Part shown: in pieces, positions 8,260 through 32,545 of the stretch
How positions within the stretch are numbered: the first letter of the stretch is position 1
Layout: every line of letters begins with the position of its first letter
Source: Verrucomicrobiia bacterium
GTDB taxonomy: Bacteria; Verrucomicrobiota; Verrucomicrobiia; Limisphaerales; JADLHS01
DNA length: 64,000 bases
Direction: 5' to 3'
NCBI GenBank assembly: GCA_011525685.1
Contig: WYBW01000009.1
Span: 8,369-72,368, forward strand
The notes under the pieces: generated by a model
What the model saw: only the letters and a program-made list of their open reading frames with translations
The model's database searches: none
Told to the model about the DNA's origin: nothing
Program-made: the position numbers and the translations under genes

Positions 8260-8435
8260 TCTGCACGCGGCGCTACTCCTTGCAGCGCGACGAGTTCCAC
8301 CAGGTCATTCCCATTCGCCCTGCAACAAGGCAAGAGGCGCTGCCAACCCCACAAACCTGGTTGCATCCATGGAACAAGTCATCCAGTCCAGTTCCGCAAC
8401 AAAGCTTGAAAGAAATCTCCCGCTGCTGCGAATCT

Positions 8436-15844: not shown

Positions 15845-15978
15845 AGTTCAAACCAAGTTCAGTTTCATTGCGTGGACGCGCGCCCGTTTTTCCAGCCGGA
15901 GAACGACCACACCCAAGGACGCAGTCTGGCCAAAAGGGGACGAAAGGTCAAAGCCCGTTTGAGCGGGAAAACGGCCTG

Positions 15979-16191: not shown

Positions 16192-16327
16192 AACGGCCTG
16201 GGGCGTTGGTTGGAACGGCGAACCAGTCCACCCTATCAGCCAGGTGGTGGGACAGGCAACCTGCCTTTCCTGTGGGCTGTGGACAGGCTGGCAGCGATGG
16301 CAACGATCCCCGCCCCAATCTCGAAAG

Positions 16328-17323
16328 CTATTTGCCCAACAACTCCGCCACCAACGCCCGCTCTTCCTTGAGTTCGTTCTCGGTGATGGCGATTTTGCCG
16401 CGGCTGAATTCATTGAGCGGCACGCCCTGAACGATCTCCCATGACTTTCCGTTGCTGCGGATGGGGTAGCTGAACAACAAACCCTTCTCAATGCCGTAGC
16501 TGCCGTCCGAGCAGATGGCCACGCTGTTCCAATCGCCGGCGGGCGTGGGGTTGACGAGCGAGCGCACCGTGTCAATGGCGGCGTTGGCCGCGCTGGCCGC
16601 GCTGGAGGCTCCGCGCGCCTTGATGATGGCCGCACCGCGCTGCTGCACGGTCGTGATGAAATCCTTCTCCAGCCATTCGGTGTGCTTGATGATGTCGGTC
16701 ACCGGTCGGGTGCCGATCCTCGCGTTGAAGAAATCGGGGAACATCGTTGAACTGTGATTGCCCCAGATGGCCAGATTGGTCACCGCCGTGATGTCCACGC
16801 TGGCTTTCTTCGCGAGTTGCGCCTTGGCCCGGTTCTCGTCGAGGCGCGTCATGGCGAAGAACCGGTCGCGCGGGACGTTGGGGGCGTTGTTCATGCAAAT
16901 CAGGGCGTTGGTGTTGCAAGGATTGCCGACGACGAGCACACGGACGTCACTGGCGGCGTGTTGCTGGATGGCCTTGCCTTGGCCGACGAAAATCCTGCCA
17001 TTCGCCCCGAGCAGGTCCTTGCGTTCCATGCCCGCCTTGCGCGGCGCGGCGCCGACCAGCAGACACCAGTTCACCCCCTTGAAGCCTTCGTCGAGATTGC
17101 CCGTGGCCACGATGCCCTTGAGCAACGGGAAGGCGCAGTCCTCGATCTCCATCACCGTGCCCTTGAGCTTCTCGAGAATTTCCGGCACGTCCACTTCGAT
17201 CAGATGCAGGATGACCGGTTGGTTGGGGCCGAAAACCTCACCGGAGGCGATGCGGAACAACAGGGAATAGCCGATCTGGCCGGCGGCACCGGTAACGGCG
17301 ACACGAATGGGGTTTGCGCTCAT
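16328..17323 (-). CDS. mdh: Malate dehydrogenase (type 2)
   Basis: [39 protein letters not shown] and WGNHS motifs. Confidence 0.97.
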
Positions 17324-17691
17324 GGTATCTTGAATCGTTGAATTCTCAGTTCGTCAAGTCGGCGAGACAATAGAAGGAAGGACGACTCAAGTCACGTCCA
17401 GACTTGAGCGGCGATTCCCTCAACCGCTCACAACCCAATCGGATGCCACGCCTTGGTGAACGCGCCATCACGAATTGAACGCAACGCGTGCCGCCAAGCA
17501 AACCCAGAAAAGACTGAGAAAACGCGCGAGAGATGATGGCAGGAGTTTTACGCGAATGGTTGTATCGGTTAACGCTGAGTTGCTGCTCTCTATCAGGGGA
17601 CGAGTGCGGCAAGAAACACTTGCGCACACAATGCTCGGCGCGTCCCCGGCATTGGGAGCAGACAACGGTGTGTTGATCTGCGCGTTCATCT

Positions 17692-18255
17692 CTACGCCCT
17701 TCGCTCCCGAATACTCGCCAGAATGTCCGCCACGACCTCCCCCTTCGGCTTCGCGCCTTGCGGGCCGCCGTGGTGCAGGCGCACGGAAACGTTGCCGGCT
17801 TCCATGTCCTTCGGGCCAATGACCAGCATCGTGTGGACGCGCAGTTGTTCCGCGTTGGCAATCTTCGCCTTGAACGGCGTGGCGCTGAAATCTGAATCCA
17901 CGCGCACCATGTTCGCGCGCAGTTCGGCCACGATGGGCTGGGCGTAGTTGATCAACGCCTCGTCGTCGTTGAGCGTGATGACGCGCACCTGATCCGGCGC
18001 GAGCCAGAGCGGGAAGTTGCCCGCGTAATGCTCGATGAGGAAGCCGATGAAACGCTCGTGCGTGCCCAGCGGCGCGCGATGGATGCACAACGGCGTCTTG
18101 TTCGAGTTGTCCTTGTCGCGGTAGGTCAGGCCGAACTTGGCGGGCACGGCGAAGTCCACCTGGTTCGTGGCGATGGTGAATTCGCGGCCGATGGCGCTCC
18201 ACACCTGCACGTCAATCTTCGGCCCGTAGAACGCCGCCTCGCTGGCGACCTCCAC
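17692..18255 (-). pseudogene. thrS: Duplicated 3' fragment of thrS (end of catalytic domain with motif 3 plus anticodon-binding domain), 187 codons open
   Basis: 17696-18255 is a direct repeat of 22762-23321 with about 17 mismatches in 560 bp (manual count). Contains AAFYGPKID and HRAPLGTHERF. Confidence 0.9.
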
Positions 18256-18263
18256 TTCTTACA

Positions 18264-21200
18264 TTACTGCACAAACAATTGGTAAAAGCGTTTCGCCTGC
18301 GGCGCGGTGCTTGGATCCTTCCAAACCGCAAGGCCGTCGGAGTCGAAGCTGAAGTCCTCAATTGGCGTATCAGTCCAGTTCAATAAATCCTCCGACGTGC
18401 TCATGTAATAGGAACGATTTGGCAAATATGGAAAATGGATGGTGACCCCACCTTGTCCAAGCATCTGCATGTGGACAAACAGACAACTGGAAGGATCATT
18501 CGGATCAGTTCCGAGAAGAAATTCATTGCGATTGCTCAGGCCATCTCCGTCCCAATCTCCATCGAGGTCGTTTGGCCCCGTGCCGGGCAAGAGCGGACTG
18601 ATGCCGAAGTGCTGCGTCGCCCAAGCGTCTTGGATTCCATCTCCATCCAAATCTTCCGATTGAAAGTCCGTCGCGATGATGGACGTGCCGGTGTTGTCTA
18701 TGCGGAATGATGCCAGGCGATCACTGGTAAGGAGACGCTGGCCAAAGACGACATTCGAAAAAGTGGATGCGATGCTCCCACATTGAATTAGAACGAAGCT
18801 TTGTGAATTGGAGACAGCCACGCCTGGATCGATGGAAATTCGCAGATTCCCAGCCAACGAAATGCTCCCGGTGACGGTGAGGGAACTGTTTTGCGGAGAG
18901 CCCGGCGCACCGGCAATGGAGAGGGCGAGTTCGGACGTGGGATCGAACACAAGATTGCTCTGAATCGTGATCGTCGAAGGCCGAAATACCCCGCGGTTGG
19001 TAACCGGCCCGATGATGACCCCGCTCCCGATCAATCTTGCGTAGCGGCGGACTTCAAGCCCGCTACGACAGATGTTCGTGCCGCCAAGCAGCTTTAAGGT
19101 GGCAAGGTTTGTCCCATCCCCAATCCGGAGGGGAATACCGGTGGACAGGTCGCAGGCTGCCCATTCAGCATTGCCCGCGCGGATATTGAGGGCGGAGGTG
19201 GCGGCACTACCAGCGGTCACCTTGTCGGCGCGGAGCAATCCATTATTCAGATCAAGTGGCCCGTTCACGGTCAGGTTGGCAGTGCCAGCACTGTTGGTCA
19301 CAAACAGTTGTCCGGATTGGATCGTCAACGCGGCCCGACCGAAGGTTGAGCTGCTCAACGACAAAGACGGAGATACAATTGAAGCCTTGCTGCTGACAAC
19401 GACACGATTGGTAGCAAACGAAGAGAACGCTGCGCTGATGGTCAAGCCGCCGGTCAGCTTCCACAAGCTGCCTTCGCCAGAAATGTCTGCCGTTGAGCCC
19501 GAGAATGCATTCAAGACTCCATTGCTGGTGAAAAGATTTGCGCCGCTGGAAACTAGTAACCGGGACCGCGAACCCGACAGGACGATTTGAGTTGAACAAT
19601 TCGCAACCGCGCTAACGCCTGCCAATGAGACGAGGGCACTCGATCCGCTGGCTAGGATTTGCGAACCAGAGAAGACACCCCCGGTTTGGACGAGAAACTG
19701 ATTTTGGCTGCCGGCCACGGTCAGACCATTTGTGGCCATGCAGCTTGCGCCCGCGCCATTCAACAACAGGCGATTGTTGTTGCCGCTGCTTCCACCGATG
19801 GTGGCCGAACTGGCGAGCAGCTTGCCGCCATATTCCACGAGCAGTTGGTTTTGTGAACCGCCCGCCCCGACCGAGATGGCATTGGGAGTCAACCAGGTTG
19901 AGCCGCTTCCGGATACCGTGGCGCTGGCGTTCGAGCTTGCCGAATCAAACCCCACGTGGCTCGTGCCGCCCGTATCGTCGCGGAACAATCCTCCCTGCTC
20001 CACCCGAAACCCTCCGGAAGTCAGAGTCACCGACGCTGAAGAATCTGCCATGAACATGCCGCCACCCTGACCGATCACGAGCTGCTGACTCTGCCAACCA
20101 CTCCCCGTCCCCATCCGAAGTCGCTCATACCCTCCCGATCCGGCCGCAAAGGTCTGGGAAACGACCGGTGCGTTTGTGGACCGTATCAACTCCAGCCCCA
20201 GCGCACCCGCAAGTCCCGCTGGCGGCGTTACTGGTGCGGTTGGCGTGTCGAGATAGGTCACCCAGCCGTCTTGAAACATTATGATCCCGCTTGGCACGGT
20301 GCCGTCGTTGTTGGGAATGATTCCGCCGCCCGCAATGACAAGTTTTCCGCCGTCTGATGTGATGGAACTTGCCTGAACCGAAATGCCAGCGGGCACGACA
20401 ATATCCGTCGCCGGTAAATGAAGCCCGCCGGTGAACAGAAGGAAACCCTGCGAGCCCTGGAAACTGGACGTCTCGGACAAAGCAACCGGGCCGACGAATC
20501 GCAGAGTGCTGTTGCTGAGGATGATGTGGCCGCGATTTGTAAGCGTGCCGGTGATGGTGCCGTCGGTATTCGTCGCTGCCAAAGCCGAATTGGTTTCAAT
20601 CAAGATTCCCCCGGCCTGTATCGCCGAAGTGCCTCCATTAAGAATCAACCCTGACCACGTTGAAGCATCGTTTCCACGGAATACCAAGGACGCCACCGAC
20701 GCATTGGTGGCCTGGATCAACTGTAGAAAGGTTGAGCCGGAACGCTGAATCCGCCCCAAGTAATTCGGATTGCTTAAATCCAATTCAGCAGCGGTGGCGT
20801 TCCGAAAGGAAATCGTCGTGTCTGTGGTGGCGATGGCATTGCTGGTTATGCTTGGTGTTCCTGAAGCGAATTCCAAGGTTGCTCCATTCACCAAAACCGT
20901 TGACGCGGGGGCCGTGCAATTGCTCGTTTGGAGTGTCGCTGCGTTACTCACCACGAGCGCTCCGCCTGTGCCAACGACGAGGTTCGGGGTAAGAAAACGG
21001 GAAGCAGGTCCGCTTAGAATCAGCAAACCCGAACTCCCCGGCAAAGCGCTTATGCTCGCAGCATCAGCCTGGACCAAACCGCTGTTGACGCGAAGCGTTC
21101 CGCTTCCGGCACCGCCAACAACGAGCGTTGCTGTTTGTGAAGCATTTGTCACAAACGCCCGCCCGCCGGTCATCGTCACATTGCCGACGTCCCCGGCGAA

Positions 21201-22607
21201 CACGCCAAGTTGCCATCCTCCGAGTTGTAATTCGCCGTTCAAAGAACCGATGATGGTATTCGCGCTTCCCGCGCGAAGCTCTCCCGCATCCAAATTGCCA
21301 TGATGCCCCACGTAGAAGTTACCGAACGTTTGAATCACGGCGCTCGTTCCGCCAATCATGTTCAACTGATCGATTGAGCCACTTCCCCCCTCAACCCGCA
21401 ATGTACCCACGTAGAAATTGAGAAGACCGATCCACAGGCTGCCGTCAGCCACATTCAAAAGATTACCGGGAGAGCTACCTGTTGAACCATATTGCATGTT
21501 GTTTGCCCAGAACTTGGCCCCATTCGTTATTAGAACCAGATTGTCCAAGTTGCCGATACCCCAGACCAACCCCACGCCCGCGTAGCCATTGATGTAGAAC
21601 CACGAATTACTGCCAGTAACGGTAATTCGATTGCCGCCACCGTTGTTCAAAAAATAGGAATCCGGCCCCGGCTTGAATAGTCCACCATTGGTAATGATCA
21701 ATGTTTGCTGTCCCGCATGAATTCCGAATTGCATGAGTGCATCGTTGATCCAAGCGCTTCCGGGATCAGAAATAACCACCTTGTTGCCTATGCCGTCCGA
21801 CAAACCCAACTGAACTTGGCGAGTCTGAAACGTTGCGCCGCCGCGAACATTGATTTCATTATAACTGTAGGCGTCCAAACCAGGGACGGTCAAAAGCGAA
21901 TTCGAACCGAGGATGTTGAGGCGAGCGCGTTTGACACCGCCCGCCTCCCCGAGCGTCAGCCCCCCGTAATCGAACTGACCAGTAATGATCCGATTCGTTC
22001 CTCCGATCACATTCCAGACGAACAGGTTGCTGGCCGTCGTGCCGAGCGAGACCTTGCTGGCGTTGCTGACGGTTACGCCTTGCAGCGTCGTCAATTCTCC
22101 GTGCCCAAATGTCAGGATGGATCGGGTCCCGTTCGTCGCCAATAATACGTCAGCCACTACGCTGGCACCGCGCAAAGCCAGCTCTCCGGTCCCGATACGT
22201 CCAATCGACAAAACACCCGCGCCCGCTTCATTCGTCACGATCAAAGAACCGCTGACCGCTGTAACCCGCGAAGTGGCACCCATCGTCTCGCCAACCCGCC
22301 AGGCATTCGTCAACCTCCACAATCCGGCTATGGACTGGGTAACGACCCCGTGGTGGAAGTAGGCTGCCGAATTTGTTGCGTCAACATCAACGGTGAATGT
22401 ATATGCGCCGGCGTTCGTGAACACAACATCATCCGGGGCAGCCGGAGTACCGTTCGGCGACCAGTTTGAGTGGGCGGAATAAACTCCGCCCGTCGAATTC
22501 GTCCAGTATGAAATCCCCGCCCCCGCTTTGATTGCAGACATTGCCCAGAAAAGTGAAAACAAAACCAGCTTCAAAAGGCATCCGGCACGAAGAGATAGCT
22601 CGTTCAT
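18264..22607 (-). CDS. Large secreted Gly/Ser/Asn-rich beta-helix (passenger-like) protein with C-terminal Ca-binding DxDGDG repeats
   Basis: Signal peptide; repeats such as 'SGSGSTW...ISVGAGGSQNQLLVEYGG'; C-terminal DLDGDG/DWDGDGLSN..E...GTDP and terminal RFY motif; no beta-barrel; visibly lower GC than flanks. Confidence 0.8.
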   Translation of the reverse strand: MNELSLRAGCLLKLVLFSLFWAMSAIKAGAGISYWTNSTGGVYSAHSNWSPNGTPAAPDDVVFTNAGAYTFTVDVDATNSAAYFHHGVVTQSIAGLWRLTNAWRVGETMGATSRVTAVSGSLIVTNEAGAGVLSIGRIGTGELALRGASVVADVLLATNGTRSILTFGHGELTTLQGVTVSNASKVSLGTTASNLFVWNVIGGTNRIITGQFDYGGLTLGEAGGVKRARLNILGSNSLLTVPGLDAYSYNEINVRGGATFQTRQVQLGLSDGIGNKVVISDPGSAWINDALMQFGIHAGQQTLIITNGGLFKPGPDSYFLNNGGGNRITVTGSNSWFYINGYAGVGLVWGIGNLDNLVLITNGAKFWANNMQYGSTGSSPGNLLNVADGSLWIGLLNFYVGTLRVEGGSGSIDQLNMIGGTSAVIQTFGNFYVGHHGNLDAGELRAGSANTIIGSLNGELQLGGWQLGVFAGDVGNVTMTGGRAFVTNASQTATLVVGGAGSGTLRVNSGLVQADAASISALPGSSGLLILSGPASRFLTPNLVVGTGGALVVSNAATLQTSNCTAPASTVLVNGATLEFASGTPSITSNAIATTDTTISFRNATAAELDLSNPNYLGRIQRSGSTFLQLIQATNASVASLVFRGNDASTWSGLILNGGTSAIQAGGILIETNSALAATNTDGTITGTLTNRGHIILSNSTLRFVGPVALSETSSFQGSQGFLLFTGGLHLPATDIVVPAGISVQASSITSDGGKLVIAGGGIIPNNDGTVPSGIIMFQDGWVTYLDTPTAPVTPPAGLAGALGLELIRSTNAPVVSQTFAAGSGGYERLRMGTGSGWQSQQLVIGQGGGMFMADSSASVTLTSGGFRVEQGGLFRDDTGGTSHVGFDSASSNASATVSGSGSTWLTPNAISVGAGGSQNQLLVEYGGKLLASSATIGGSSGNNNRLLLNGAGASCMATNGLTVAGSQNQFLVQTGGVFSGSQILASGSSALVSLAGVSAVANCSTQIVLSGSRSRLLVSSGANLFTSNGVLNAFSGSTADISGEGSLWKLTGGLTISAAFSSFATNRVVVSSKASIVSPSLSLSSSTFGRAALTIQSGQLFVTNSAGTANLTVNGPLDLNNGLLRADKVTAGSAATSALNIRAGNAEWAACDLSTGIPLRIGDGTNLATLKLLGGTNICRSGLEVRRYARLIGSGVIIGPVTNRGVFRPSTITIQSNLVFDPTSELALSIAGAPGSPQNSSLTVTGSISLAGNLRISIDPGVAVSNSQSFVLIQCGSIASTFSNVVFGQRLLTSDRLASFRIDNTGTSIIATDFQSEDLDGDGIQDAWATQHFGISPLLPGTGPNDLDGDWDGDGLSNRNEFLLGTDPNDPSSCLFVHMQMLGQGGVTIHFPYLPNRSYYMSTSEDLLNWTDTPIEDFSFDSDGLAVWKDPSTAPQAKRFYQLFVQ

Positions 22608-22630
22608 ACACGAACAAGTCTACTCCCGGA

Positions 22631-22727
22631 CAGGCTGTTGAAAACGCCTTTTTTCGAGTTAAAAAGCCATGTGCCCCCAATGATTTTGAGGGTCAATTCT
22701 TCAAAACACGCCCTTTTCAAGAGCCTG
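22631..22727. mobile_element. Short (~97 bp) MITE-like remnant
   Basis: CAGGCTGTTGAAAA ... TTTTCAAGAGCCTG inverted ends (13/14) with AT-rich interior; ends resemble IS5/IS1182-type termini. Confidence 0.55.
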
Positions 22728-22754
22728 CTGACTCTTGCGGGATAAAGCGTGGAA

Positions 22755-23855
22755 TCAACCTGCCCTTCGCTCCCGAATACTCGCCAGAATCTCCGCCACG
22801 ACCTCCCCCTTCGGCTTCGCGCCTTGCGGGCCGCCGTGGTGCAGACGCACCGAGACGTTGCCGGCCTCCATGTCCTTCGGGCCAATGACCAGCATCGTGT
22901 GGACGCGCAGTTGTTCCGCGTTGGCAATCTTCGCCTTGAACGGCGTGGCGCTGAAATCCGAATCCACGCGCACCATGTTCGCGCGAAGTTCGTTCACGAT
23001 GGGCTTGGCGTAGTTGATCAACGCTTCGTCGTCGTTGAGCGTGATGACGCGCACCTGATCCGGCGCGAGCCAGAGCGGGAAGTTGCCCGCGTAATGCTCG
23101 ATGAGGAAGCCGATGAAACGCTCGTGCGTGCCGAGCGGCGCGCGATGGATGCACAACGGCGTCTTGTTCGAGTTATCCTTGTCGCGGTAGGTGAGGCCAA
23201 ACTTGGCGGGCACGGCGAAGTCCACCTGGTTGGTGGCGATGGTGAATTCGCGGCCGATGGCGCTCCACACCTGCACGTCAATCTTCGGCCCGTAGAACGC
23301 CGCCTCGTTGGCGACCTCCACGTAGTTGATGCCGGATTCGCTCAACACCCGGCGCACCATGTCCTCGGTCTTCTTCCACAACTCCGGTTCGTTGACGTAT
23401 TTCTTGCCCATGCCCTCCGGCGACGACGTGCTGAAGCGCATCTGGTATTTCTCCAGGCCAAAGAGCTTGAAGTATTTCAGATACATGTCGTTCACGGCGC
23501 GGAACTCGTCGGCGAACTGCTCCTCGGTGCAATAGATGTGGGCGTCGTTCATGTTGAGCGATCGCACGCGCATGAGGCCGAACAACTCGCCGCTCTGCTC
23601 GTAGCGGTAGCAGCAGCCGTATTCCGCGAGGCGCAACGGCAGGTCGCGGTAACTGCGCGGTTCAGCCGCAAAGATGCGGTGATGATGCGGACAGTTCATG
23701 GCTTTGAGGTAGTAACTCTCCGCCTCGCCCAGCTTTTTCAATTCCGCGCGCAACTGGGACAACTCGTTGAACGCGGCGACAATCTCCATCGGCGCGGTGC
23801 TCGTTTTAACCGCCTGTTCAACCAACTCAAGTTCGGATTTCGTAATGACAGACAT
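22755..23855 (-). CDS. thrS: Threonyl-tRNA synthetase, C-terminal half (Zn ligands, motifs 2 and 3, anticodon-binding domain)
   Basis: YYLKAMNCPHH, YRYEQSGELFGLMRVR, NDAHI, AAFYGPKID and HRAPLGTHERF, preceded by about 45 non-ThrS residues. ATG at 23855 lies just downstream of the hicA stop. Confidence 0.93.
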   Translation of the reverse strand: MSVITKSELELVEQAVKTSTAPMEIVAAFNELSQLRAELKKLGEAESYYLKAMNCPHHHRIFAAEPRSYRDLPLRLAEYGCCYRYEQSGELFGLMRVRSLNMNDAHIYCTEEQFADEFRAVNDMYLKYFKLFGLEKYQMRFSTSSPEGMGKKYVNEPELWKKTEDMVRRVLSESGINYVEVANEAAFYGPKIDVQVWSAIGREFTIATNQVDFAVPAKFGLTYRDKDNSNKTPLCIHRAPLGTHERFIGFLIEHYAGNFPLWLAPDQVRVITLNDDEALINYAKPIVNELRANMVRVDSDFSATPFKAKIANAEQLRVHTMLVIGPKDMEAGNVSVRLHHGGPQGAKPKGEVVAEILASIRERRAG

Positions 23856-23871
23856 GGAGCGACGATTTGCT

Positions 23872-24087
23872 TCAAAGATTTTCCAACAACGCTTCAACGG
23901 TAATGCCAGCCTGCTTCAGAATGGACTGCAACGTCTTTGGTTTGATTTCGCGGTGCATGGGCACACACGGATGCAGCGAACCTTTCACGTAATGCCGGTG
24001 CGAGCCGGTCTGCCGGACGAATTCAAAACCGAGCCGCTTCAAGGCGCGGCAAACCTCGTCTCCGGAAAGGTCGCGCGGCAGTTTCAC
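23872..24087 (-). CDS. hicA: HicA family toxin (mRNA interferase)
   Basis: MKLPRDLSG.E..RAL..LGF...RQTGSH...VP.H.EIK..TL.SIL.QAG; start overlaps the upstream HicB-like stop. Confidence 0.9.
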   Translation of the reverse strand: MKLPRDLSGDEVCRALKRLGFEFVRQTGSHRHYVKGSLHPCVPMHREIKPKTLQSILKQAGITVEALLENL

Positions 24088-24305
24088 GCGACTGACGCGG
24101 ACAAAACCGGATCCTGAACGAAATGAAGGCGGATCGGCCAGCGCAACCGTTCGTCACCCTCGTCAAACCGGCACTGAACCAAATCGCGGATCATGGCGAT
24201 CAACTCGTCGAGACTGCTTCCTTGCGTCGCCATTTCCGGCTCATGGCAGACCGCGACGAGCATGTCGTCGTCCTGTTCGATTTCAAAAACGAGTTCCTTC
24301 TTCAT
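24084..24305 (-). CDS. Short HicB-like antitoxin
   Basis: ELVFEIEQDDD..VA......ATQG.SLDEL..MIRD.V.C.F; translationally coupled to hicA. Confidence 0.75.
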   Translation of the reverse strand: MKKELVFEIEQDDDMLVAVCHEPEMATQGSSLDELIAMIRDLVQCRFDEGDERLRWPIRLHFVQDPVLSASVA

Positions 24306-24307
24306 AT

Positions 24308-24496
24308 TCAGGCGTAGCGCAGGCGGATGACTTTGGGCCGCTCCGTTTCCTTCTCGAAATGGCAGGACACGGCGTCCTTTACCATTGTGCGCAAATCATC
24401 CCAATCTTCGCCTTGCGTGAAAAGGCTGTGGCCGAGCGCGCGCGCCCAAAAGCCGCCCTCTTCCGCTTCACGCACTGCAAAAATGATTTCGCTCAT
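24308..24496 (-). CDS. Second HicB-like protein, probably C-terminally truncated
   Basis: MSEIIFAVREAEEGGFWARALGHSLFTQGE..DDLR.MVKDAV.CHF; paralogous to 24084-24305 but ends about 10 aa earlier. Confidence 0.7.
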   Translation of the reverse strand: MSEIIFAVREAEEGGFWARALGHSLFTQGEDWDDLRTMVKDAVSCHFEKETERPKVIRLRYA

Positions 24497-24525
24497 GGCT
24501 CAAGCATGTCTGGCCGCACCCAATC

Positions 24526-24741
24526 TTACAAGGCTGCCGTTGGCAACCCGCTCTTGCTGTGTTCAAGCACCGCAATCGCATCCTCGCGCTTGACTGTGGG
24601 AAAGCACTCCAGAAATTCATCCAGCGACAAGTTGTCCTCCAGATACTCGAAGAGCGACTGCACGGGCACGCGCGTGCCGTGAAACACCGGCGCGCCGCTC
24701 ATGATCTCCGGATCAACTTCGATGGGCAGATTCGCTTTCAC
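24526..24741 (-). CDS. DUF433 family antitoxin-like protein (orphan)
   Basis: DPEIMSGAPVFHGTRVPV..L.EYL......DEFL..FP; no DUF5615/PIN partner follows. Confidence 0.88.
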   Translation of the reverse strand: MKANLPIEVDPEIMSGAPVFHGTRVPVQSLFEYLEDNLSLDEFLECFPTVKREDAIAVLEHSKSGLPTAAL

Positions 24742-24916
24742 GCGAACAGAATACGAGCAACGCCGCGAAAAGACAAAGCCGTTTCAAGCAGGGCTGCAAG
24801 CCCGGCAGACTATAGCCCAGGGCAACGCCCTGGGTGCATCGTCAAAAGAAATCCAAAGCCCTGAAAGGGCGGCAGAACTCTCGCCAATCAGCCGCCGCCT
24901 CGATATTCTCCCCGCC

Positions 24917-25447
24917 ATGCCGACAGACCAAACCTTTCACAGCCGGGTGCTTGCCGACGGGCACGCCGAACTCACGGGCGAAGGCAAGCAACAGAAAATC
25001 CGCTACATCGCCGCCGACCACACCGAGCGTTACGCCGACCCCGAGGAACAGGTCCGCGCCGAGTTCTGGGCCGAACTGATTTGCCACTACGGCTACGAGC
25101 CGGAACGCATCGGCTTTGAAATCACCGTGCCGCGCCGCACGCCAGCGGACCGCGCCGACATCGTCGTCTTCCACGACCGCGAGCAGAAGCGCCCCTTTGC
25201 GGTCATTGAGTGCAAACGCGATGGCGTGACCGACGCCGAATTCAGCCAGGCCGTTGAGCAGGCCTGCGGCAATCGCGCCAAGTGAAAGGCAAAACCACTG
25301 GCTCGTCTGGTCGCCGCCGAAGTCATCCGCCGTCGTGAAACCGCGCGCCGCCTGCGGGCCGAGGCCGCCCGCGAATGGGCCGCCGCCAAAGCGTGGTTCG
25401 AATCCGAACTGCTGGGCCGCCCCGCGAACCCGGAGCGCAACTCGTAA
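24917..25447 (+). pseudogene. Collapsed restriction-modification remnant: HsdR_N-type nuclease N-terminus followed by an HsdS-like C-terminal helix
   Basis: PEEQVR, YGY...I..E, RADIVV and IECK motifs up to TGA at 25283-25285. The same frame continues as ...AAEVIRRRETARRLRAEAAREWAAAKAWFESELLG, resembling the end of a specificity subunit (weaker call). Confidence 0.7.
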
Positions 25448-25487
25448 CGCCGCTCGTTCCGCCCAGCGGCAATTTTCACGCCCGGCA

Positions 25488-25704
25488 GAACGCCAATGGC
25501 GTTCCACCCTTCAGCCCGGGGTTGGCGCGGGAGCGCCTACCCTGGGTCATCTGCGTGAACATTCCTCCCAACCCTGAAAGGGTTGCATCCCCAGTCGCGC
25601 GATTGGATGCAACCCCGTTGGGGTTGAAAATCATTTACATGGCCCACCCAGGGTAGCTCGTGCCTCGCAACCCTGGGCTGGTGGGCAGAACGCCGTTGGC
25701 GTTC
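25488..25704. repeat. ~217-bp long palindromic element (REPIN-like)
   Basis: GAACGCCAATGGCGTTC...CTACCCTGGGT...CAACCCTGAAAGGGTTGCATC / GATGCAACCCCGTTGGGGTTG...ACCCAGGGTAG...GAACGCCGTTGGCGTTC. Confidence 0.8.
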
Positions 25705-25938
25705 ACCCGAGCCACGCGCGAAGCCCTCGACCATCTGCCCATCCGCCACGACGACCACGCCGGATTCATCGCCGGACTCCAAAAGCTGCTCGACCCCGTC
25801 GAGCGCGCCCGCAACTGCGTCGCGCATCACCGCACCATTCCCAAACGCACGCTCGACGACTACCCCCAAGCCCGCGAAGACCTGCACCGGGCCATCCAAG
25901 AATTCTGGGACAAGGTAAAACAAGATCCGATGGCGTGA
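25705..25938 (+). pseudogene. C-terminal fragment of a HEPN (Swt1-like) domain protein
   Basis: Helical fragment with an RxxxxH motif (ARNCVAHHR); no start codon outside the upstream palindrome. Confidence 0.55.
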
Positions 25939-26191
25939 GTTGCACGTGGCCGTTCTGTCGCCCCTACAGGGCTTGGGGTTTCTGTGTTGACGATGAACCC
26001 AAGGCGTTGCCCTGGGCTATTATCTTTCGGGCTTTCAGCCCTTCAGTTTGGCTTCGTGGAAATCAGCGTTCACCCGCCGGGCCGTGCCCCACGCGGCAGG
26101 TCAGCATCGCTCGACGGCTCAACTCCTGGCGTCTCTGCGTCTCCGCGTTGAAAGCCGTTTGAGCGGCTTGGGCATTCGCGATTCAGCGCGG

Positions 26192-27259
26192 TCAGAGCCG
26201 ATGCGGGCCGCCGGCGGCGAGCATGTGTTGGCCGAGGCTTTCCACGGCTTCTTCCAGCGCGGGCAGTGAGGACGCGGGCTGGAGTTGGATGCGCAATTCG
26301 TCGCAGAGCGGCTGCAGGACGGGTTGCAGGCGCGAACCGCTGATGAAAATTTTCTCCGGCAGGCTTTTGCCCATCGTCAGCGCCTTGACCAACGTGCGTC
26401 CGGCGGCTTCGCCGGGCGTGAGCGCGCCGCTGGCCACGTCCATGCCGATGACCAGTCCGCGCCGCTTTTCCACCAGCAGGGCGAACCGGCCGAAGCAGGG
26501 GCGACCGTCCTCGACGAACGAGCCGCCGGGCAACATCGTGCAATCGAATTCGCAGGCGAGGCCCGGCTCGCGCTTGAGGGCGCGGAGTTTTTCCAAGTCC
26601 GCGCCGGAAGGTTGAAACGGCTCGAAGCCGGTGAGCGGCGGCAACAACAGCGGTCGCCAGTCGAGGTCTTTGGGCGTGAGCGGACGGTCGGGCATTGGCA
26701 CGGGCAGGAAAGGTATTTCCGTCGCGTCGCGGTCGTCGAAGAGATCGGGGTGCTGCTCGAACAACCTGTAGAACGTCGTGAGGCGCGGCAGGTCGGCGAA
26801 AAGTTGGTCGGCCTCGGCCTGGGTGATGTGCCAGGGATGCCAGCCGGGCGTGGCGGAGCGAAACTGCGGCCAGACCGCGCCCTTGCCGGCGGGCTTGAAG
26901 GCGGCGGCCTGGAGCACCGCCAGGTCTTCCTTCCAAAGCTCGCGCTTGGGCACGAACTCCAGCTTGAGGCAATCCATACCGTCGGCGTTGTTCAAGTCCT
27001 CGGGGTCGGACAGCTCGCCGAGCATGGCCAGAATCCAGCGCAGGCCGGCGCGACGATAAAACACGGCGGCGAAGACTTCGCCGGCGTTGCCGAGGACGTG
27101 GCCGATACGCGTCTCGCCGGTGGCGGGATCAACCAGGCCGACGGGGTTGCTGTCGTAGGCGAACGTCCACGGTTTGAGCGCGGCCAGTTCGGCGGCGGCG
27201 ACGAGCAGGGCGCGCCAGGTTTCGGGGGCGACGGGCGGGGGCGGGGCGAGTTTGGGCAT
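26192..27259 (-). CDS. Conserved hypothetical protein (DUF6930/DUF7309-like)
   Basis: W..L..AA.....L.PW, VLGNAGE, WPQFRS..PG..PW motifs; AGGAGG Shine-Dalgarno upstream of ATG 27259. Confidence 0.7.
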   Translation of the reverse strand: MPKLAPPPPVAPETWRALLVAAAELAALKPWTFAYDSNPVGLVDPATGETRIGHVLGNAGEVFAAVFYRRAGLRWILAMLGELSDPEDLNNADGMDCLKLEFVPKRELWKEDLAVLQAAAFKPAGKGAVWPQFRSATPGWHPWHITQAEADQLFADLPRLTTFYRLFEQHPDLFDDRDATEIPFLPVPMPDRPLTPKDLDWRPLLLPPLTGFEPFQPSGADLEKLRALKREPGLACEFDCTMLPGGSFVEDGRPCFGRFALLVEKRRGLVIGMDVASGALTPGEAAGRTLVKALTMGKSLPEKIFISGSRLQPVLQPLCDELRIQLQPASSLPALEEAVESLGQHMLAAGGPHRL

Positions 27260-27322
27260 CAATTCCTCCTGCGCTCTGGGTTGTTTGGCGGGAACGTTTC
27301 TCGTCATTCGGATGTGGTCAGA

Positions 27323-27347
27323 GGACAGGCGGGACGCGCTGTCCTAC
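27323..27347 (-). repeat. Single GTAG REP-like hairpin overlapping the stop codon of the thrS N-half
   Basis: Minus strand reads AAA-GTAG-GACAGCGCGTCCCGCCTGTCC; the TAG of GTAG is the stop at 27344-27346. Confidence 0.6.
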
Positions 27348-28318
27348 TTTATTTTCGCCGCATAATCGGCCAGTTGCTTTTCGAGTTCGGCGATGCGGGC
27401 GAGAAGCTTTGCGCGTTGCTCGCGGTGTTCGTCTATTTCCATCGGCGGGAACATACTGTCCGCGTAATACGGCAGGTGGCCGGAGGTTTTATACATTTTC
27501 TCCCGCGCCAGATGCGGCGTGCGGACGCGGACGTAGCCGGCGGCGAATTCGGTTTCCTTGGCCAGCTTCTCCAGTTCCTCCACCAGCACCGTGCCCTTGG
27601 GCAGCCACAGCGGCATGCCCGGCCCGACAAACTCGGTGTCAATCGCGAACAGCCCCATCTCCGCACCAATCTTGCGGTGGTCGCGCTTTTTGGCCTCCTC
27701 CTGCATCTTCAGCCACTCGTCGAGCTGGGTCTTGTTCTTGAAGGCCGTGCCGTAGATGCGCTGGAGCTGCGGGTTGCGCTCGTCGCCCTTGTAGTAGGCG
27801 CTGGCTACGCTGGTGAGCTTGAACGCGCCGATGTTGCCGGTGCGCATCACGTGCGGTCCGGCGCAGAGGTCAACGAAGTCGCCGTTCTTGTAGTAGGAGA
27901 TCGGTTCGCCTTCGGGAATCTGGTTGAGCAGATCGAGTTTGAACTTCGAGGCGTTGCCGGGGCGTTCGCCCAGTCCGCCGAGCCGTCCGCTCTGCGCGTC
28001 GGCAATGGCCTGCTCGCGGGGGACGACAATCTTTTCAAAGGAATTGTTCGCCTTGATCTCCTTTTTCATCTCGGCCTCGATCTTCTCGAAGTCCTCGGGC
28101 GAAATGCGGTGCGAACATTCGAGGTCGTAGTAAAAGCCATTCTCGACGGGCGGGCCGTAGGCGAATTGCGCGTCCGGCCACAGGCGCAGGATGGCCGTGG
28201 CCATGACGTGGGCGCAGGAGTGGCGGATGCGCTCCAGCTCGGTCATCTTCGCGCGGTCGTCGAGGGTTTTGCGGTCGGGATTCGATTGTGGCGGTGGTTG
28301 CTGATTCTCGTTGGGCAT
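27344..28318 (-). CDS. thrS: Threonyl-tRNA synthetase, N-terminal half (editing/SAD domain plus motif 1; no TGS domain)
   Basis: RHSCAH, DLCAGPH, LQRIYGTAF, RDHRKIG, GY..V.TP and SGHLPYY..SMFPPME, then about 30 non-ThrS residues and a stop. Confidence 0.93.
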   Translation of the reverse strand: MPNENQQPPPQSNPDRKTLDDRAKMTELERIRHSCAHVMATAILRLWPDAQFAYGPPVENGFYYDLECSHRISPEDFEKIEAEMKKEIKANNSFEKIVVPREQAIADAQSGRLGGLGERPGNASKFKLDLLNQIPEGEPISYYKNGDFVDLCAGPHVMRTGNIGAFKLTSVASAYYKGDERNPQLQRIYGTAFKNKTQLDEWLKMQEEAKKRDHRKIGAEMGLFAIDTEFVGPGMPLWLPKGTVLVEELEKLAKETEFAAGYVRVRTPHLAREKMYKTSGHLPYYADSMFPPMEIDEHREQRAKLLARIAELEKQLADYAAKIK

Positions 28319-28334
28319 ACAGGCTTTCTTTGTT

Positions 28335-28508
28335 TAACGCAAAGGCGCGAAGACGCAAAGGCGCAAAGCTGGAGCGCGGCTGTGGTCGCAGACCCAATCG
28401 CAGTCTTGGGAACGGGCGAGCGTGCCGTGGGTGGTGCTCCGCACACAGTCGCGCTCCCATTCTGAGGTGTTGCGTCTTTGCATCTTCGCGTCTTTGCGTC
28501 TCTACGTT
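28335..28508. repeat. Nested repeats in the thrS 5' region
   Basis: Outer AACGCAAAGGCGCGAAGACGCAAAGGCGCAAAG / CTTTGCATCTTCGCGTCTTTGCGT pair; inner GGAGCGCGGCTGTG...CACAGTCGCGCTCC pair at 28371-28457. Confidence 0.7.
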
Positions 28509-28521
28509 TCCTGGTGGAAAC

Positions 28522-28552
28522 AAAAACGCCCCGGACTTGCGGTCGGAGGCGT
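28522..28552 (-). terminator. Attenuator terminator hairpin upstream of thrS
   Basis: Minus strand ACGCCTCCGAC-CGCAA-GTCCGGGGCGT followed by a T run. Confidence 0.75.
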
Positions 28553-28580
28553 GGGCGTCCATCTCGTTCGAGACGAACGC

Positions 28581-28619
28581 TTAAATCGTCGTGGATGTGT
28601 TCCGGGTTTGTTCGCCCAT
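28581..28619 (-). promoter_or_regulatory. Thr-rich leader peptide MGEQTRNTSTTI of a thrS attenuator
   Basis: ATG GGC GAA CAA ACC CGG AAC ACA TCC ACG ACG ATT TAA (4 of 12 codons Thr), followed directly by a hairpin and the terminator. Confidence 0.75.
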
Positions 28620-28816
28620 CACGCCGGAAAGGTAAGGGAGCGCCTCATGGCTGGCAATTGGATTTCGAGGGGATTCCGGTTCGCTTCTAAATTGTAGCGC
28701 GGCGAACTCTTGATTCTCACGTCCGGATTTTTTCCTTGTCTGTCCGCGTGGGTTCGGCGTGAGTGGTGAGGTTCATGCCCTTGCAGCAGCCAGCTTTGAA
28801 GGTAAAGCCAGCCGGA

Positions 28817-30304
28817 ATGCTGGCCACGGAGAGTCCGATGCGCGACCTGGAGGCGATCATCCGGTCGCGCACGCCGTTGATTGCCGTGGAGAGCAACGAG
28901 GAACCGCAGATCGTGAGTCTGGTGCGCCAGATCGGCGGGCGGCTGCAGATCAAGGCCTATAGCTGGACGGTGACGGAGGGTTTGCGGGCGTTCGACGCGT
29001 GCGACCAGCCCCCGCAATCGGTGCTCAAGTCGCAGGACGTCCTCAACTACATCAAGACCACCGCCAAACATTCGTTGTTCGTGTTGCTGGATTTTCACCC
29101 CTACCTGGAGGACGCGCTTCACGTCCGGTATTTGAAGGACATCGCGCTGACCCAGGCAAAGCATTACTCGACCGTGGTGCTGGTGGGTCACACGGTGCGG
29201 GTGCCCGAGGAGTTGCGGCCTTTCACGGCGAGCTTCCGCCTTCCCTTGCCAACGATCGAGGAACTGCGGGCGATTGTCTTCGAGACGGCCGCCGAGTGGG
29301 GCGCCCGGCACGGCCAGCGCGACGTCCAGACCACCAACAAGGCGCTCGACCTGCTGGTGCGCAACCTGGCCGGACTCACGGCCACTGACGCGCGCCGGCT
29401 CGCCATCAAAGCAATCGCGGATGACGGCGTGATCGCCGAGTCGGACATGCCCGAAGTGATGCGGGCCAAATACGAATTACTGGGCCGCGACGCGCCGTTG
29501 TCATTTGAGTACGAAACGGCAAAGTTTTCCGAGATTGGCGGGATGCAGCGTCTGCGGAAGTGGTTGGAAGTGCGGAAGAGTTTTTTTGCCGGCGGGCCGC
29601 AGCCGAACCTCGATCCGCCGCGCGGCGTGTTGTTGCTGGGCGTGCAGGGTTGCGGCAAGAGTCTCGCGGCCAAGGCGGCGGCGGGGATTTACGGTGTGCC
29701 GTTGCTGCGGCTGGATTTCGGCGTGCTTTACAACAAGTACTATGGCGAGACCGAACGCAATCTCCGCAAGGCGCTGGAAACCGCGGAAGTCATGTCGCCC
29801 TGCGTGCTCTGGATGGACGAGATCGAAAAGGGTCTCTCCACGAGCGATGACGACGACGGCCTGTCGCGGCGCATTCTTGGCGCGCTGCTCACCTGGATGT
29901 CGGAGCGGCGCAAACCCGTGTTTGTGGTCGCGACGGCCAACGACATCAGCCGCCTGCCGCCGGAGATGGTGCGCAAGGGACGCTTTGACGAGATCTTCTT
30001 CGTGGATCTGCCGTCCGCGGCCAACCGGCGAAACATCCTGGAGATTCACCTGCGGAAACGCAGCCTGGACCCGGTGCGCTTCGAACTCGATGCGCTGACG
30101 GAGGCCACCGAGGGATTTTCCGGATCGGAGATCGAGCAGGCCATCGTGTCGGCGATGTACACCGCGCATGCCCAGGGTCGTGAAGTGTCGCAGGAGGATT
30201 TGCGGGATGAGGTCCGGCAGACCCGACCGTTGTCGGTGGTCATGGCCGAACAGGTGGAAGCGTTGCGACAGTGGGCCGCGGATCGCACAGTGCCCTGTGA
30301 CTAG
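28817..30304 (+). CDS. AAA+ ATPase (Ycf46-like)
   Basis: Walker A GVQGCGKS, Walker [13 protein letters not shown] and RKGRFDE; degenerate N-terminal AAA domain with DFH. Confidence 0.9.
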
Positions 30305-30379
30305 CCGGGCGGAGAATTCAATCGAAGGAATTGAAACAAGGGCTTGTGCCGGTGATTCGGCTGCGCTAAAGTTCGCACC

Positions 30380-32545
30380 ATGAAGCCCCGGGCAGTTCGA
30401 CGCATCCGGTTTGGTGCAGCGGCAGGCGATTTTCTCAATCGCCGGTCGTGCGGCCTGCTGGTTGCGTTGGCCGTCCTGACAGCGATGCCACTGGCCCAGG
30501 GATCGGAGACATCCGCCGTTTCCCAATTTCGCAAGGAGATTGAGCCGATTTTGATCAGTTACTGCTACGACTGTCACGGCGACGGTCTGGCGCGAGGGAA
30601 CGTCGCCTTCGACGAATTGAAAACGGATGAGGCCCTGCTGGATCATGAACTGTGGCTGAAGGTTTTGAAAAACGTGCGGGCCAACATCATGCCGCCGGAG
30701 AAGAAGGCCCGTCCGAATGACGAGGAACGCGAACGGCTCGAGCAATGGATCAAGGTTTCCGCCTTCGGACTCGACTTGCAGAATCCGGACCCGGGCCGGG
30801 TGACCGTGCGGCGGCTAAACCGCGTGGAGTATCGCAACACTGTCCGCGACCTGACCGGCGTGGACTTCCGCGTCGAGTTGGAATTTCCACCCGACGACAG
30901 CGGGCACGGCTTCGACAACATCGCCGATGTGTTGACCTTGCCGCCCATGTTGTTGGAAAAGTATTTCGAGGCGGCCAAGAGCATCGTGGCCCGGGCCGTG
31001 CCGGACGCGCCGGGCGGGCGGAACTACGAGCGGTTCTTCGGCAAGGCGCCGGCGGCCACGGCCGAGGCGCGGCGCGCGCATGCCCGGGAAGTGCTGGGGA
31101 ATTTCGCCCGCCGAGCCTTCCGCCGCCCGGTGGACGACAAGACCCTCGATCGTCTCACGGCGCTGGCCGAAAGCATTTATTCCCAACCCGGAAAGACTTA
31201 CGAGGCTGGAGTGTCGCAAGCGATGGTGGCGGTGCTGGCCTCGCCACGGTTTCTGTTTCGCGAGGAAGGGACAGAGCAGGTTAACAAGCCGAACGAACAT
31301 CCGCAGGTGGATGAATACGCGCTGGCTTCCCGGCTGTCCTATTTCCTTTGGTCCACGATGCCTGACGAGGAGTTGTTCCGGCTGGCCGCCGAGGGTTCGC
31401 TCCGGAAGAACCTTTCCGCGCAAGTCAAACGGATGCTCGCCGACCGGCGCTCCGAGGCGTTGACCCGAAATTTTGCCGGTCAATGGCTGCATACCCGCGA
31501 CATCGAGAACATCCCCATCGAGGAACGGGCGGTGCTGGCGCGGGAAGATGGGCCGAATACGGACCGCGAGCGCAATCGCCGGCGATTCCGCGAGTTGCGC
31601 GACAAGCCCGAGGAAACCCTGACGCCGGAGGAAAAGGAGGAGCTGGGAAGACTCCGCGCCGCGTTCCGGACCGCCGGCCAACCGCGCGTCGAGATGACCG
31701 GGGAACTCCGCCGGGCGATGCGCCAGGAAACCGAGAGAACCTTCGAGTACATCCTCAAGGAAGACCGCAGCCTTTTGGAACTGCTGGACAGCGATTACAC
31801 CTTCCTCAACGAACGGCTGGCGAGGCATTACGGCATCGAAAATGTCACCGGCAACGAAATGCGCCGCGTCATCCTCCCGGCCGACAGCCCGCGAGGCGGG
31901 GTGTTGGGGCAGGGCACAATTCTGGCCGTGACCTCGAATCCGACGCGCACTTCGCCCGTCAAACGCGGCGTGTTCATCCTGGAAAACATTCTGGGGCTGC
32001 CGCCGCCCCCGCCGCCGCCGGACATTCCGCCGTTGGAAGACGCGGCCCGGAACACCGGCGGCCGCACGCCAACGTTGCGGGAGGTGCTGGCGGTGCATCG
32101 CGAGCAGCCCTTGTGCAGTTCGTGTCACAACCGCATGGACCCCCTCGGGCTGGCGTTTGAGAATTTCAATGCCATGGGCATGTGGCGCGACCAGGAATAC
32201 GGACAGCCGATTGACGCCGCCGGCAAACTGGTCACCGGGGCGGCGTTTTCCAACGTGCGGGAGTTGAAACGGATTCTGGTCACGCAACATCAGCTTGATT
32301 TTTACGCCGCCTTGACCGAGAAGCTGATGACTTACGCACTGGGCAGAGGGGTTGAGTATTACGACGTTGAGACGGTGGACCAGATCGTGGCCCGGATGGT
32401 GAAAGCCGATGGCCGGCCATCCGCCTTGTTGATGGGCATCGTCGAGTCCGCGCCGTTTCAGAAAACCAGAAACTTGAACGCGCCAAAAACCGCCGAAACC
32501 CCCCGGCCTGTCCAACAGCGGGCCCAAGCCAGAACCACGCCATGA
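30380..32545 (+). CDS. DUF1592/1587/1588/1595/1585 multi-domain protein with two heme-c motifs
   Basis: CYDCH and CSSCH; RRLNRVEY.NT.RDL, LASRLSYFLW, TSPVKRG. Start may lie downstream. Confidence 0.9.
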   Translation: MKPRAVRRIRFGAAAGDFLNRRSCGLLVALAVLTAMPLAQGSETSAVSQFRKEIEPILISYCYDCHGDGLARGNVAFDELKTDEALLDHELWLKVLKNVRANIMPPEKKARPNDEERERLEQWIKVSAFGLDLQNPDPGRVTVRRLNRVEYRNTVRDLTGVDFRVELEFPPDDSGHGFDNIADVLTLPPMLLEKYFEAAKSIVARAVPDAPGGRNYERFFGKAPAATAEARRAHAREVLGNFARRAFRRPVDDKTLDRLTALAESIYSQPGKTYEAGVSQAMVAVLASPRFLFREEGTEQVNKPNEHPQVDEYALASRLSYFLWSTMPDEELFRLAAEGSLRKNLSAQVKRMLADRRSEALTRNFAGQWLHTRDIENIPIEERAVLAREDGPNTDRERNRRRFRELRDKPEETLTPEEKEELGRLRAAFRTAGQPRVEMTGELRRAMRQETERTFEYILKEDRSLLELLDSDYTFLNERLARHYGIENVTGNEMRRVILPADSPRGGVLGQGTILAVTSNPTRTSPVKRGVFILENILGLPPPPPPPDIPPLEDAARNTGGRTPTLREVLAVHREQPLCSSCHNRMDPLGLAFENFNAMGMWRDQEYGQPIDAAGKLVTGAAFSNVRELKRILVTQHQLDFYAALTEKLMTYALGRGVEYYDVETVDQIVARMVKADGRPSALLMGIVESAPFQKTRNLNAPKTAETPRPVQQRAQARTTP

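Follow-up and report, generated by a model that had tools for sequence, protein, structure and literature searches.

A bacterial threonyl-tRNA synthetase gene divided into two conserved halves, with variable cargo between them, in Verrucomicrobiota

Threonyl-tRNA synthetase (ThrRS) is encoded in two pieces in a soil/sludge Verrucomicrobiia bacterium of the order Limisphaerales. The window, which is the whole stretch of 64,000 nucleotides analysed here (positions 8,369 to 72,368 of contig WYBW01000009.1, assembly GCA_011525685.1), carries thrS as two separate open reading frames (ORFs), an N-half and a C-half, with other genes between them. These halves probably make up a functional ThrRS of two chains, whose gene holds a variable cargo slot, and we infer that the chains bind each other and are active. 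The sole ThrRS of the cell would then be made from two polypeptides. Of its parts, the N-half has the editing domain and the opening portion of the class II core; the C-half has the zinc-site Cys, the remaining core, and the anticodon-binding domain. Together they would rebuild one ThrRS protomer and, because ThrRS is a homodimer, presumably pair as (N.C)2. The cut lies inside a helical insertion of about 90 amino acids (aa), whose first helix now forms a 30-aa tail on the N-half and whose last two helices form a 47-aa head on the C-half. These three helices are expected to pack together, adding to a large core interface.

The N-half occupies 27344..28318 on the minus strand and encodes 324 aa, ending in ...SMFPPMEIDEHREQRAKLLARIAELEKQLADYAAKIK*. 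It contains the tRNA_SAD editing domain, a linker, and the start of the class II core as far as ..SMFPPME, which is followed directly by the helical tail (27347..27436, minus strand; residues 295-324, IDEHREQRAKLLARIAELEKQLADYAAKIK) and the stop codon. The C-half ORF spans 22755..23897 on the same strand. Initiation at the ATG common to its relatives, at 23855, gives a protein of 366 aa (22755..23855) that starts MSVITKSELELVEQ...ESYYLKAMNCP. This protein consists of the helical head (23715..23855, minus strand; residues 1-47, MSVITKSELELVEQAVKTSTAPMEIVAAFNELSQLRAELKKLGEAES), the remaining class II core, which begins YYLKAMNCPHHH.., and the anticodon-binding domain. An earlier note on this DNA had described two uninterrupted thrS ORFs about 3.5 kb apart; both are as described, and the gap between them (23856 to 27343) measures 3,488 bp. 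Pfam assigns tRNA_SAD (7.8e-16) to the N-half and tRNA-synt_2b (4.4e-41) and HGTP_anticodon (3.3e-14) to the C-half, so that the ThrRS editing, class II core, and anticodon-binding domains are all present across the pair. No TGS domain was detected in the halves with Pfam, and the alignment to Staphylococcus aureus ThrRS (1nyq) begins at residue 69.

The break falls in the short loop between ..MFPPM.. and ..MNCPHH, and the contention that no canonical sequence is missing there is borne out by continuous coverage of three references. The NCBIfam thrS profile TIGR00418 (565 positions) is matched from 1 to 255 by the N-half and from 254 to 557 by the C-half. Residues 69-327 of 1nyq are matched by the N-half and residues 322-641 by the C-half, and on Escherichia coli ThrRS (1qf6) the N-half extends to 326 and the C-half begins at 323. 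As a consequence of the split, both halves score below the TIGR00418 cut-off of 383.65 bits (233 bits for the N-half, 344 bits for the C-half). Both editing motifs, HxxxH and CxxxH, are invariant in an alignment of 23 N-halves, and C55, H106, and H237/H244, which we take to be active-site or zinc-site ligands, are invariant in 22 aligned C-halves. The 3-4 hydrophobic periodicity noted earlier in both extensions is readable directly from the sequence. The heptad-like pattern of the tail runs through L305, I309, L312, L316, Y319, and I323, with spacings of 4, 3, 4, 3, and 4, and the head has a similar spacing (I25, F29, L32, L35/R36, L39, L42).

The same split recurs across the order. An order-wide scan of 251 evenly sampled genomes gave matches in 227; of the 232 matches, 150 were listed and classified and 82 were not. 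A match was called split-type when it lay in an open frame of 312-424 aa and reached residue 321 or beyond of the 324 in the N-half, that is, into the tail. By this rule 18 of the 150 matches listed are split-type, from 13 families, and six genera hold both split and contiguous alleles among the matches listed. The tally of 18 includes the unpublished genome G256, on which no claim rests. The split, again with a homologous tail and head, is also present in about 40 named contigs from metagenome-assembled genomes. When the head alone was used to search species genomes, 50 loci came back, of which L036-L078 are split-type or fragments thereof, L079-L083 are contiguous with a homologous insertion, and L084 and L085 are outgroups without the insertion. 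Homologous tails are found in 22 other N-halves, and 21 homologous C-halves begin at the same point. Two head searches of protein collections gave no usable census: a word-seeded search of large libraries yielded 8 proteins among 18 candidates, and an exhaustive search of 50%-identity cluster representatives yielded 42 matches, mostly short head-first fragments and long coiled-coil proteins with several weak stretches. Seven loci (L036, L038, L042, L048, L050, L059, and L078) lie on contigs whose titles include 'uncultured Bifidobacteriaceae', 'Candidatus Sulfopaludibacter', and 'Bacteroidales'. Their halves are 75-90% identical to Verrucomicrobial ones, and the contigs probably come from mislabelled bins.

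Unsplit relatives carry an insertion at the same place. At 19 relatives' loci, 14 contiguous and 5 split with a head like that of the window, the feature always falls at the same loop, and all 14 contiguous enzymes have between about 15 and about 100 inserted aa there. As had been anticipated, relatives thus show at this loop either variable helical insertions or the same split with different cargo. Fifteen contiguous enzymes align with a mean column identity of 77%, except for an unalignable block at the insertion, which has no Pfam family match in any of the 15. The insertion is hypervariable even within one genus, with a median pairwise identity of 20% among 17 contiguous alleles as compared to 84% for the C-core. 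An AlphaFold 2 model of the unsplit L079 enzyme, of which only the local insertion helices were used because its overall quality was too poor for a fold search, shows the insertion (292-370) as helical, with a predicted local confidence (pLDDT) of 74-89 and helices at 292-314, 316-320, 324-329, 332-344, and 352-370. In an alignment made by eye, the tail of the split form matches the first insertion helix of L079, L080, L082, and L018, and the head matches the last two. Since the tail and head are homologous to the contiguous insertion of relatives, the break lies inside an older helical module. The extensions that the earlier note placed at the break are therefore present and conserved, but they were not created there; they are parts of an older, contiguous, multi-helix insertion. 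The insertion at this ThrRS loop is specific to this Verrucomicrobiota order.

The cores, the tail, and the head are all under purifying selection. Omega was taken as the median of pairwise NG86 estimates over 23 N-halves and 22 C-halves, and pairs with a whole-gene synonymous divergence (dS) above 1.5 or below 0.05 were dropped. Omega is 0.16 for the N core (dS 0.61), 0.17 for the C core (dS 0.70), 0.27 for the tail (dS 0.82), and 0.40 for the head (dS 0.57). Because the dS values of the tail and head are similar to those of the cores, their conservation does not simply reflect a recent origin. Among 13 split loci the tail is 53-97% identical and the head 57-96%, far more conserved than the insertion of unsplit enzymes (median 20%). 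The relaxed selection that had been held up as a possible objection is not seen in either half or either extension, given omega values of 0.16-0.40.

The association of the halves was examined by modelling them as a two-chain complex, as had been proposed. The model scores 0.90 (0.89, 0.90, and 0.90 in the separate runs), whereas the best of three controls scores 0.01. Of 80 solved complexes 58 attain the mark applied, as do 2 of 110 mismatched pairs. At least 83% of contacts are shared among the runs, with a partner pLDDT of at least 87. Tail residues 298, 301-302, 305-306, 308-310, 312-317, 319-321, and 323-324 lie in the low-error interface, as do head residues 2-5, 8-9, 11-12, 15, 21-22, 25, 28-29, 31-32, 35-36, 38-39, and 42. 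These residues have the i/i+3/i+4 spacing of helices and include the heptad positions readable in the sequence. The model supports, but does not show, packing of the tail against both head helices. The antiparallel coiled coil that had been suggested to join the halves is thus only partly upheld: the tail and head do pack together in the model, but a small helical bundle, in which the tail meets two head helices, fits better.

The two chains could also be held by the ordinary class II core interface. The tail and head would then be unneeded for assembly, and their conservation would have some other cause: a part in dimerisation or in activity, for example, or the function that the insertion serves in unsplit enzymes. 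Most of the approximately 300 modelled contacts are indeed core-to-core, and the lowest-error pairs are all core residues. Tail and head identities also do not covary across the split loci (rho 0.08 over 78 non-independent pairs from 13 loci), which leaves co-evolution of the two unsupported. We nevertheless consider this explanation unlikely. It does not readily account for extensions that are 53-97% identical when the unsplit insertion has a median of 20%, nor for their position within the confident part of the modelled interface.

It is highly improbable that the gene is rejoined before use by programmed DNA excision, RNA trans-splicing, or a split intein. Such rejoining would suit halves that are co-oriented and within 8.2 kb of each other in most loci, and intervening elements in genes are known in other bacteria (the sigK skin element and the nifD element). 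Against it, the stop codons of 23 N-halves and the start codons of 22 C-halves occupy conserved positions, and all of these halves are intact. Pfam detects only ThrRS domains in the halves, and an Rfam scan of 15000-31000 (E<=0.1) finds only two Acido-Lenti-1 motifs. A split intein, intron, or ribozyme was rejected, with no such family in the halves (Pfam) or in 15000-31000 (Rfam); the extensions are plain helix, homologous to the ordinary insertion of unsplit relatives over both the 30-aa tail and the 47-aa head. An excisable element of the skin or nifD type was rejected as well. Phage_integrase has seven matches in the genome and none on the window's contig, and these seven integrases gave no tblastn match (E<=0.01) in 27 gaps totalling 100,798 bp, a search of limited reach because tyrosine recombinases are diverse. 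At L049 the halves are convergent and 4.5 kb apart (N-half 15578-16555, minus strand; C-half 10001-11110, plus strand). In genome G029 they lie on separate contigs (C53 and C238), with no partner within 7.9 or 10.5 kb. Simple excision cannot rejoin halves that are inverted or unlinked in this way. Moreover, no joint removing the whole gap was found in four public sequencing runs that were compared with the window for junction coverage.

The source genome is a draft of 6.73 Mb in 199 contigs, 97.8% complete and 0.8% contaminated. Searches with each half and with the thrS profile find in it a single N-half, a single C-half, and a single 3' remnant. The earlier note had called for a search for another full-length thrS; none is present in this 97.8%-complete genome, where the remaining matches are distant class II paralogues. 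Among the 18 split-type genomes with matches listed, 17 have a single N-half-like match at E<=1e-40. At least half of the sampled words of the window are present in 12 public sequencing runs. DNA contigs from two studies besides the likely source cover 25651-27835, 26700-27575, and 23351-24387. RNA-library contigs of a third study cover 27207-27580 and 23643-24079, and a second RNA run has pieces in both thrS halves. Both junctions are bridged by contigs from independent runs, so the split is not an assembly chimera, a concern that the earlier note had raised. This bridging, with the recurrence of the same split in many genomes, means that neither chance nor assembly accounts for it. Least probable of all is that the split copy is a pseudogene in decay, or arose through faulty assembly or binning, with the real thrS in unassembled sequence: the genome is a 199-contig draft of which about 2% may be missing, and the split-type N-half of G232 has an internal TAG, but omega is 0.16-0.17 on both cores, the ORFs are intact in dozens of species, a single N-half match is the rule in 17 of the 18 split-type genomes among the matches listed, and the same junctions appear in independent runs from other studies.

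The DNA between the halves differs from genome to genome. The gaps were surveyed at the 26 of the 43 loci L036-L078 at which both halves lie on one strand, and their lengths range from 1,383 to 8,162 bp. They contain 141 candidate ORFs, including seven from the window, of which 41 form 18 small clusters and the other 100 are singletons. These ORFs match 73 Pfam families. Among the 25 most frequent of the 73, N6_N4_Mtase is the commonest (6 ORFs), HTH_3 and nucleotidyltransferase families have 3 each, and the HEPN-type partner of the nucleotidyltransferases, HicA, DUF433, and the IS200-type Y1 transposase have 2 each. DUF5615 is represented by 2 ORFs in the same set and by 4 ORFs when clustering is used. 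The PADLOC type II methylase models (MTase_II) match up to 6 gap ORFs. Individual scans add DarT beside a macro-domain protein at L039, an OLD-like AAA_15/TOPRIM nuclease with DUF2130 at L066, a GHKL ATPase with an MBL-fold protein at L070, and N6 and Eco57I-type methylases at L044 and L071. The cargo consists mostly of toxin-antitoxin and anti-phage genes. Since the cell needs both halves and their sequences are highly conserved, the DNA that separates them, like that just downstream of thrS, behaves as a cargo slot.

Partial copies of thrS border the cargo cassettes. Pieces of the 3' end of the N-half are repeated in the gaps of L045 (three copies), L051 (two copies), L063, and L060; their left ends vary (residue 263, 274, or 289), and they run to the end of the tail. 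At L051 the copies share 88-94% DNA identity with the live tail, and two start right at ..EMDEH. Pieces of the 5' end of the C-half are repeated at L046, L064, and L076. Pieces of its 3' end, with varied breakpoints, lie downstream of thrS in many relatives, with up to three in tandem in G014 (contig C182). Such partial duplicates are the footprint expected of homology-facilitated illegitimate recombination. In that process one end is anchored by homology and the other is joined illegitimately (PMC3240628). It has been demonstrated experimentally only in other bacteria, whereas here it is read from scars; the anchor duplicates that it predicts are those seen. Incoming DNA may therefore have used thrS homology at one end and illegitimate joining at the other. 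Only events that left both halves intact would have survived, with older partial thrS ends remaining as scars.

The description of the opened loop as a landing pad for accessory genes consequently stands as a pattern, given the varied cargo and the scars, but thrS-anchored recombination is suggested rather than a dedicated insertion site. On both strands, the tail and head DNA folds no better than shuffled sequence (z +0.5 to +1.2), with no hairpin-type sites. An integron-like cassette array was rejected on the basis of this lack of attC-type folding and of the absence of a Phage_integrase match from the contig and, by a tblastn search of limited sensitivity, from the 27 gaps. Insertion driven by an integrase was likewise set aside, on weak evidence, as no Phage_integrase was found on the window's contig and none in the 27 gaps.

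Several points weigh against a two-chain ThrRS with a cargo slot, or against parts of it. The complex model passes largely because it resembles solved ThrRS structures; its new content is confined to the contact of tail and head, which comes without coordinates. The identities of tail and head are uncorrelated, as described above. The L079 model is poor overall, with a mean pLDDT of 49 from an alignment of only 15 sequences. RNA-library contigs, including those at 27207-27580 and 23643-24079 and those of the second run, cannot prove transcription. Many of the 141 gap ORFs may be spurious, since they come from a crude pick rule in GC-rich DNA. Some gaps may contain recombinases, as the cargo families seen are the 25 commonest of 73, and the recombination mechanism is deduced from the scars alone. 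Finally, a quick IQ-TREE tree of the C-core is poorly resolved, with split and contiguous forms interspersed and 12 changes of state, at least four of which are forced by well-supported branches.

This tree includes 26 distinct complete split-type C-halves. Incomplete C-cores were left out, the duplicate-genome loci L036, L037, L051, L070, and L077 were removed, and L084 and L085 were kept as ungrouped outgroups. It does not support a single origin of the split state, because split and contiguous rows are interspersed, and it resolves too little to tell transfer from repeated change. N-core and C-core distances are no more than moderately correlated (rho 0.55). The interspersion and this modest correlation fit exchange within thrS but are not proof of it. 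The genes flanking thrS in the window (pfp, mdh, an AAA ATPase, and a DUF1592 protein) do not occur within 10 kb of thrS in 16 related loci, so the flanks are unusable for tracing transfer. It is conceivable, though we lean slightly against it, that the split allele, comprising tail, cargo, and head, spreads between Verrucomicrobiota genera by recombination in the conserved thrS halves. The interior of an essential gene would then serve as a heritable, horizontally exchangeable defence-island slot, with the formerly idle helical insertion recruited as a clamp that renders the two-chain enzyme viable, and the allele would be locked against loss because imprecise deletion would kill the cell.

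Within the gap of the window, the gene nearest the N-half (26192..27307, minus strand) encodes a 371-aa protein with DUF7309 and DUF6930 (Pfam). Its homologues are 85% identical in the L051 gap and 84% identical downstream of the C-half at L068. In DNA run X5, one contig joins 27105 to 25690 via 29 other letters. This contig hints at a variant without most of the DUF7309/DUF6930 gene and at strain-level differences in cargo within one community. An inverted-repeat segment follows at 24790..26042, with arms at 24790-24878 and 25952-26042 that are 84.6% identical over 91 bp. The arms carry the two Acido-Lenti-1 RNA motifs (RF01687; gathering score 37), at 24790-24834 on the minus strand (44 bits) and 25998-26042 on the plus strand (41.9 bits). 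This inverted pair, flanking a 1.1-kb cargo segment, resembles the two termini of a small mobile or repeat element. The segment contains two plus-strand ORFs, an HSDR_N_2 fragment (24701..25285; Pfam) and an ORF at 25660..25938 with no family match. The latter has ..RNCVAHH.., which reads like an R-x4-H HEPN-type motif, and may be the remnant of a nuclease gene.

Closer to the C-half, a DUF433 gene (24526..24741, minus strand; 71 aa; Pfam) lacks the DUF5615 partner with which it is paired in relatives; its homologues adjoin the C-half at L044, L045, L051, and L037. Two small minus-strand ORFs (24308..24496 and 24084..24305) have no Pfam family above cut-off, the best match being DUF1902 at E 0.077. 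They lie directly upstream of hicA (23872..24087, minus strand; HicA_toxin, 1.3e-19), which encodes the toxin of a HicAB-type toxin-antitoxin pair, and this position suggests a HicB-like antitoxin role for them. No homing endonuclease family was found by Pfam among nine ORFs of the window's gap.

Beyond the C-half, a terminator-like hairpin at 22710..22724 (minus strand) lies just past the stop codon; it comes from a consensus scan only, which gave 13 sites as compared to 8.6 expected. The next ORF (18264..22607, minus strand) encodes a repeat-rich, secreted-repeat-like protein of 1447 aa with only a weak TSP3_bac match. It is followed by the thrS 3'-end remnant (17692..18255, minus strand), which corresponds to C-half residues 193-379 at 97% aa identity. 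At the DNA level, 17696-18255 and 22762-23321 are 97.0% identical (17 mismatches in 560 bp), and the homology ends at the stop codon. The 1447-aa ORF, between the live 3' end and the older copy, occupies a second cargo slot, immediately downstream of thrS.

Expression of the C-half may be arranged in one of two ways. A conserved element of about 45 nt precedes its ATG, whatever the upstream cargo, in 9 of 20 loci examined (L036, L040, L042, L047, L066, L068, L070, L072, and L077). The element, which reads ..TTGA[AG][AG]TT[TC]CATTGCGG..GGCTATTTTCTCCGCC-ATG, may be a promoter or leader, and part of it is also present within the L037 gap. In the window and four other loci, a toxin-antitoxin gene ends 10-17 nt ahead of the C-half ATG. 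The hicA stop of the window is 16 nt ahead of it, and a near-identical hicA occupies the same place at L054. These arrangements suggest either a leader belonging to the C-half itself or read-through from the last cassette. A sigma-70-type promoter scan found no site in 22400-28700, a result that is uninformative for this phylum.

Divided synthetases have precedents that differ from this one. In Crenarchaeota, ThrRS is encoded by two genes for separate catalytic (ThrRS-cat) and editing (ThrRS-ed) proteins. Function is spread over two polypeptides there as well, but that division runs between domains and leaves the catalytic core whole, whereas here the cut passes through the class II core, before the zinc-site Cys. 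Aquifex aeolicus LeuRS (alpha/beta) and Nanoarchaeum equitans AlaRS are also synthetases in two pieces that must associate, but they are other enzymes in single lineages. To our knowledge, neither variable cargo between the halves nor a helical extension module has been described for them, and we know of no split synthetase that is a bacterial ThrRS cut through its class II core or that has variable cargo between its pieces. No paper describing a verrucomicrobial ThrRS that is split or bears a coiled coil came up in a literature search that covered few subscription journals. Defence islands and integration hotspots are framed by conserved core-gene flanks around a slot with strain-variable defence and toxin-antitoxin genes; here, in contrast, the flanks are the halves of one essential gene, and the slot lies inside a coding sequence.

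Split genes of Nanoarchaeum are a subject of PMC3491384. The nearest parallel described is that of Aeromonas phage Aeh1, in which nrdA is cut by the mobE homing endonuclease gene into NrdA-a and NrdA-b (Crona et al. 2010, PMC3045599). The tails of these pieces are essential for activity, and the pieces assemble non-covalently, without splicing or DNA rearrangement (PMC3045599). As with thrS, an essential enzyme is cut in its catalytic region by inserted DNA with new tails at the break, giving two intact ORFs with extra tails; the thrS halves likewise have no splicing signals. The Aeh1 case concerns one phage gene and one endonuclease, with tails born at the insertion (PMC3045599), whereas thrS is a cellular housekeeping gene split in many species, its tail and head come from an older helical insertion, and the inserted DNA is 1.4-8.2 kb of variable defence or toxin-antitoxin cargo.

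What is new here is a gene in pieces that is essential to a cell and is found split in 13 or more families, with an older insertion as its likely clamp and a slot for defence or toxin-antitoxin cargo at the break. Marker-based annotation would call thrS missing or partial in split-type genomes, and completeness estimates for them may be misled. If our reading is correct, nature provides here a widespread example of a class II synthetase in which two chains together form the catalytic core. It would bear on the folding of aminoacyl-tRNA synthetase cores and their tolerance of fission, and would offer a ready-made split-enzyme scaffold. Defence and toxin-antitoxin genes would have a slot, both stable and transferable, in the interior of an essential gene, so that such islands could be sought in a place not considered before; the cargo would also be addicted to its host in a new way. 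If the split allele does spread between genera, genes in pieces would be a stable cellular strategy for anchoring accessory genes, or a trick of selfish cargo to the same end, rather than a rare phage accident.

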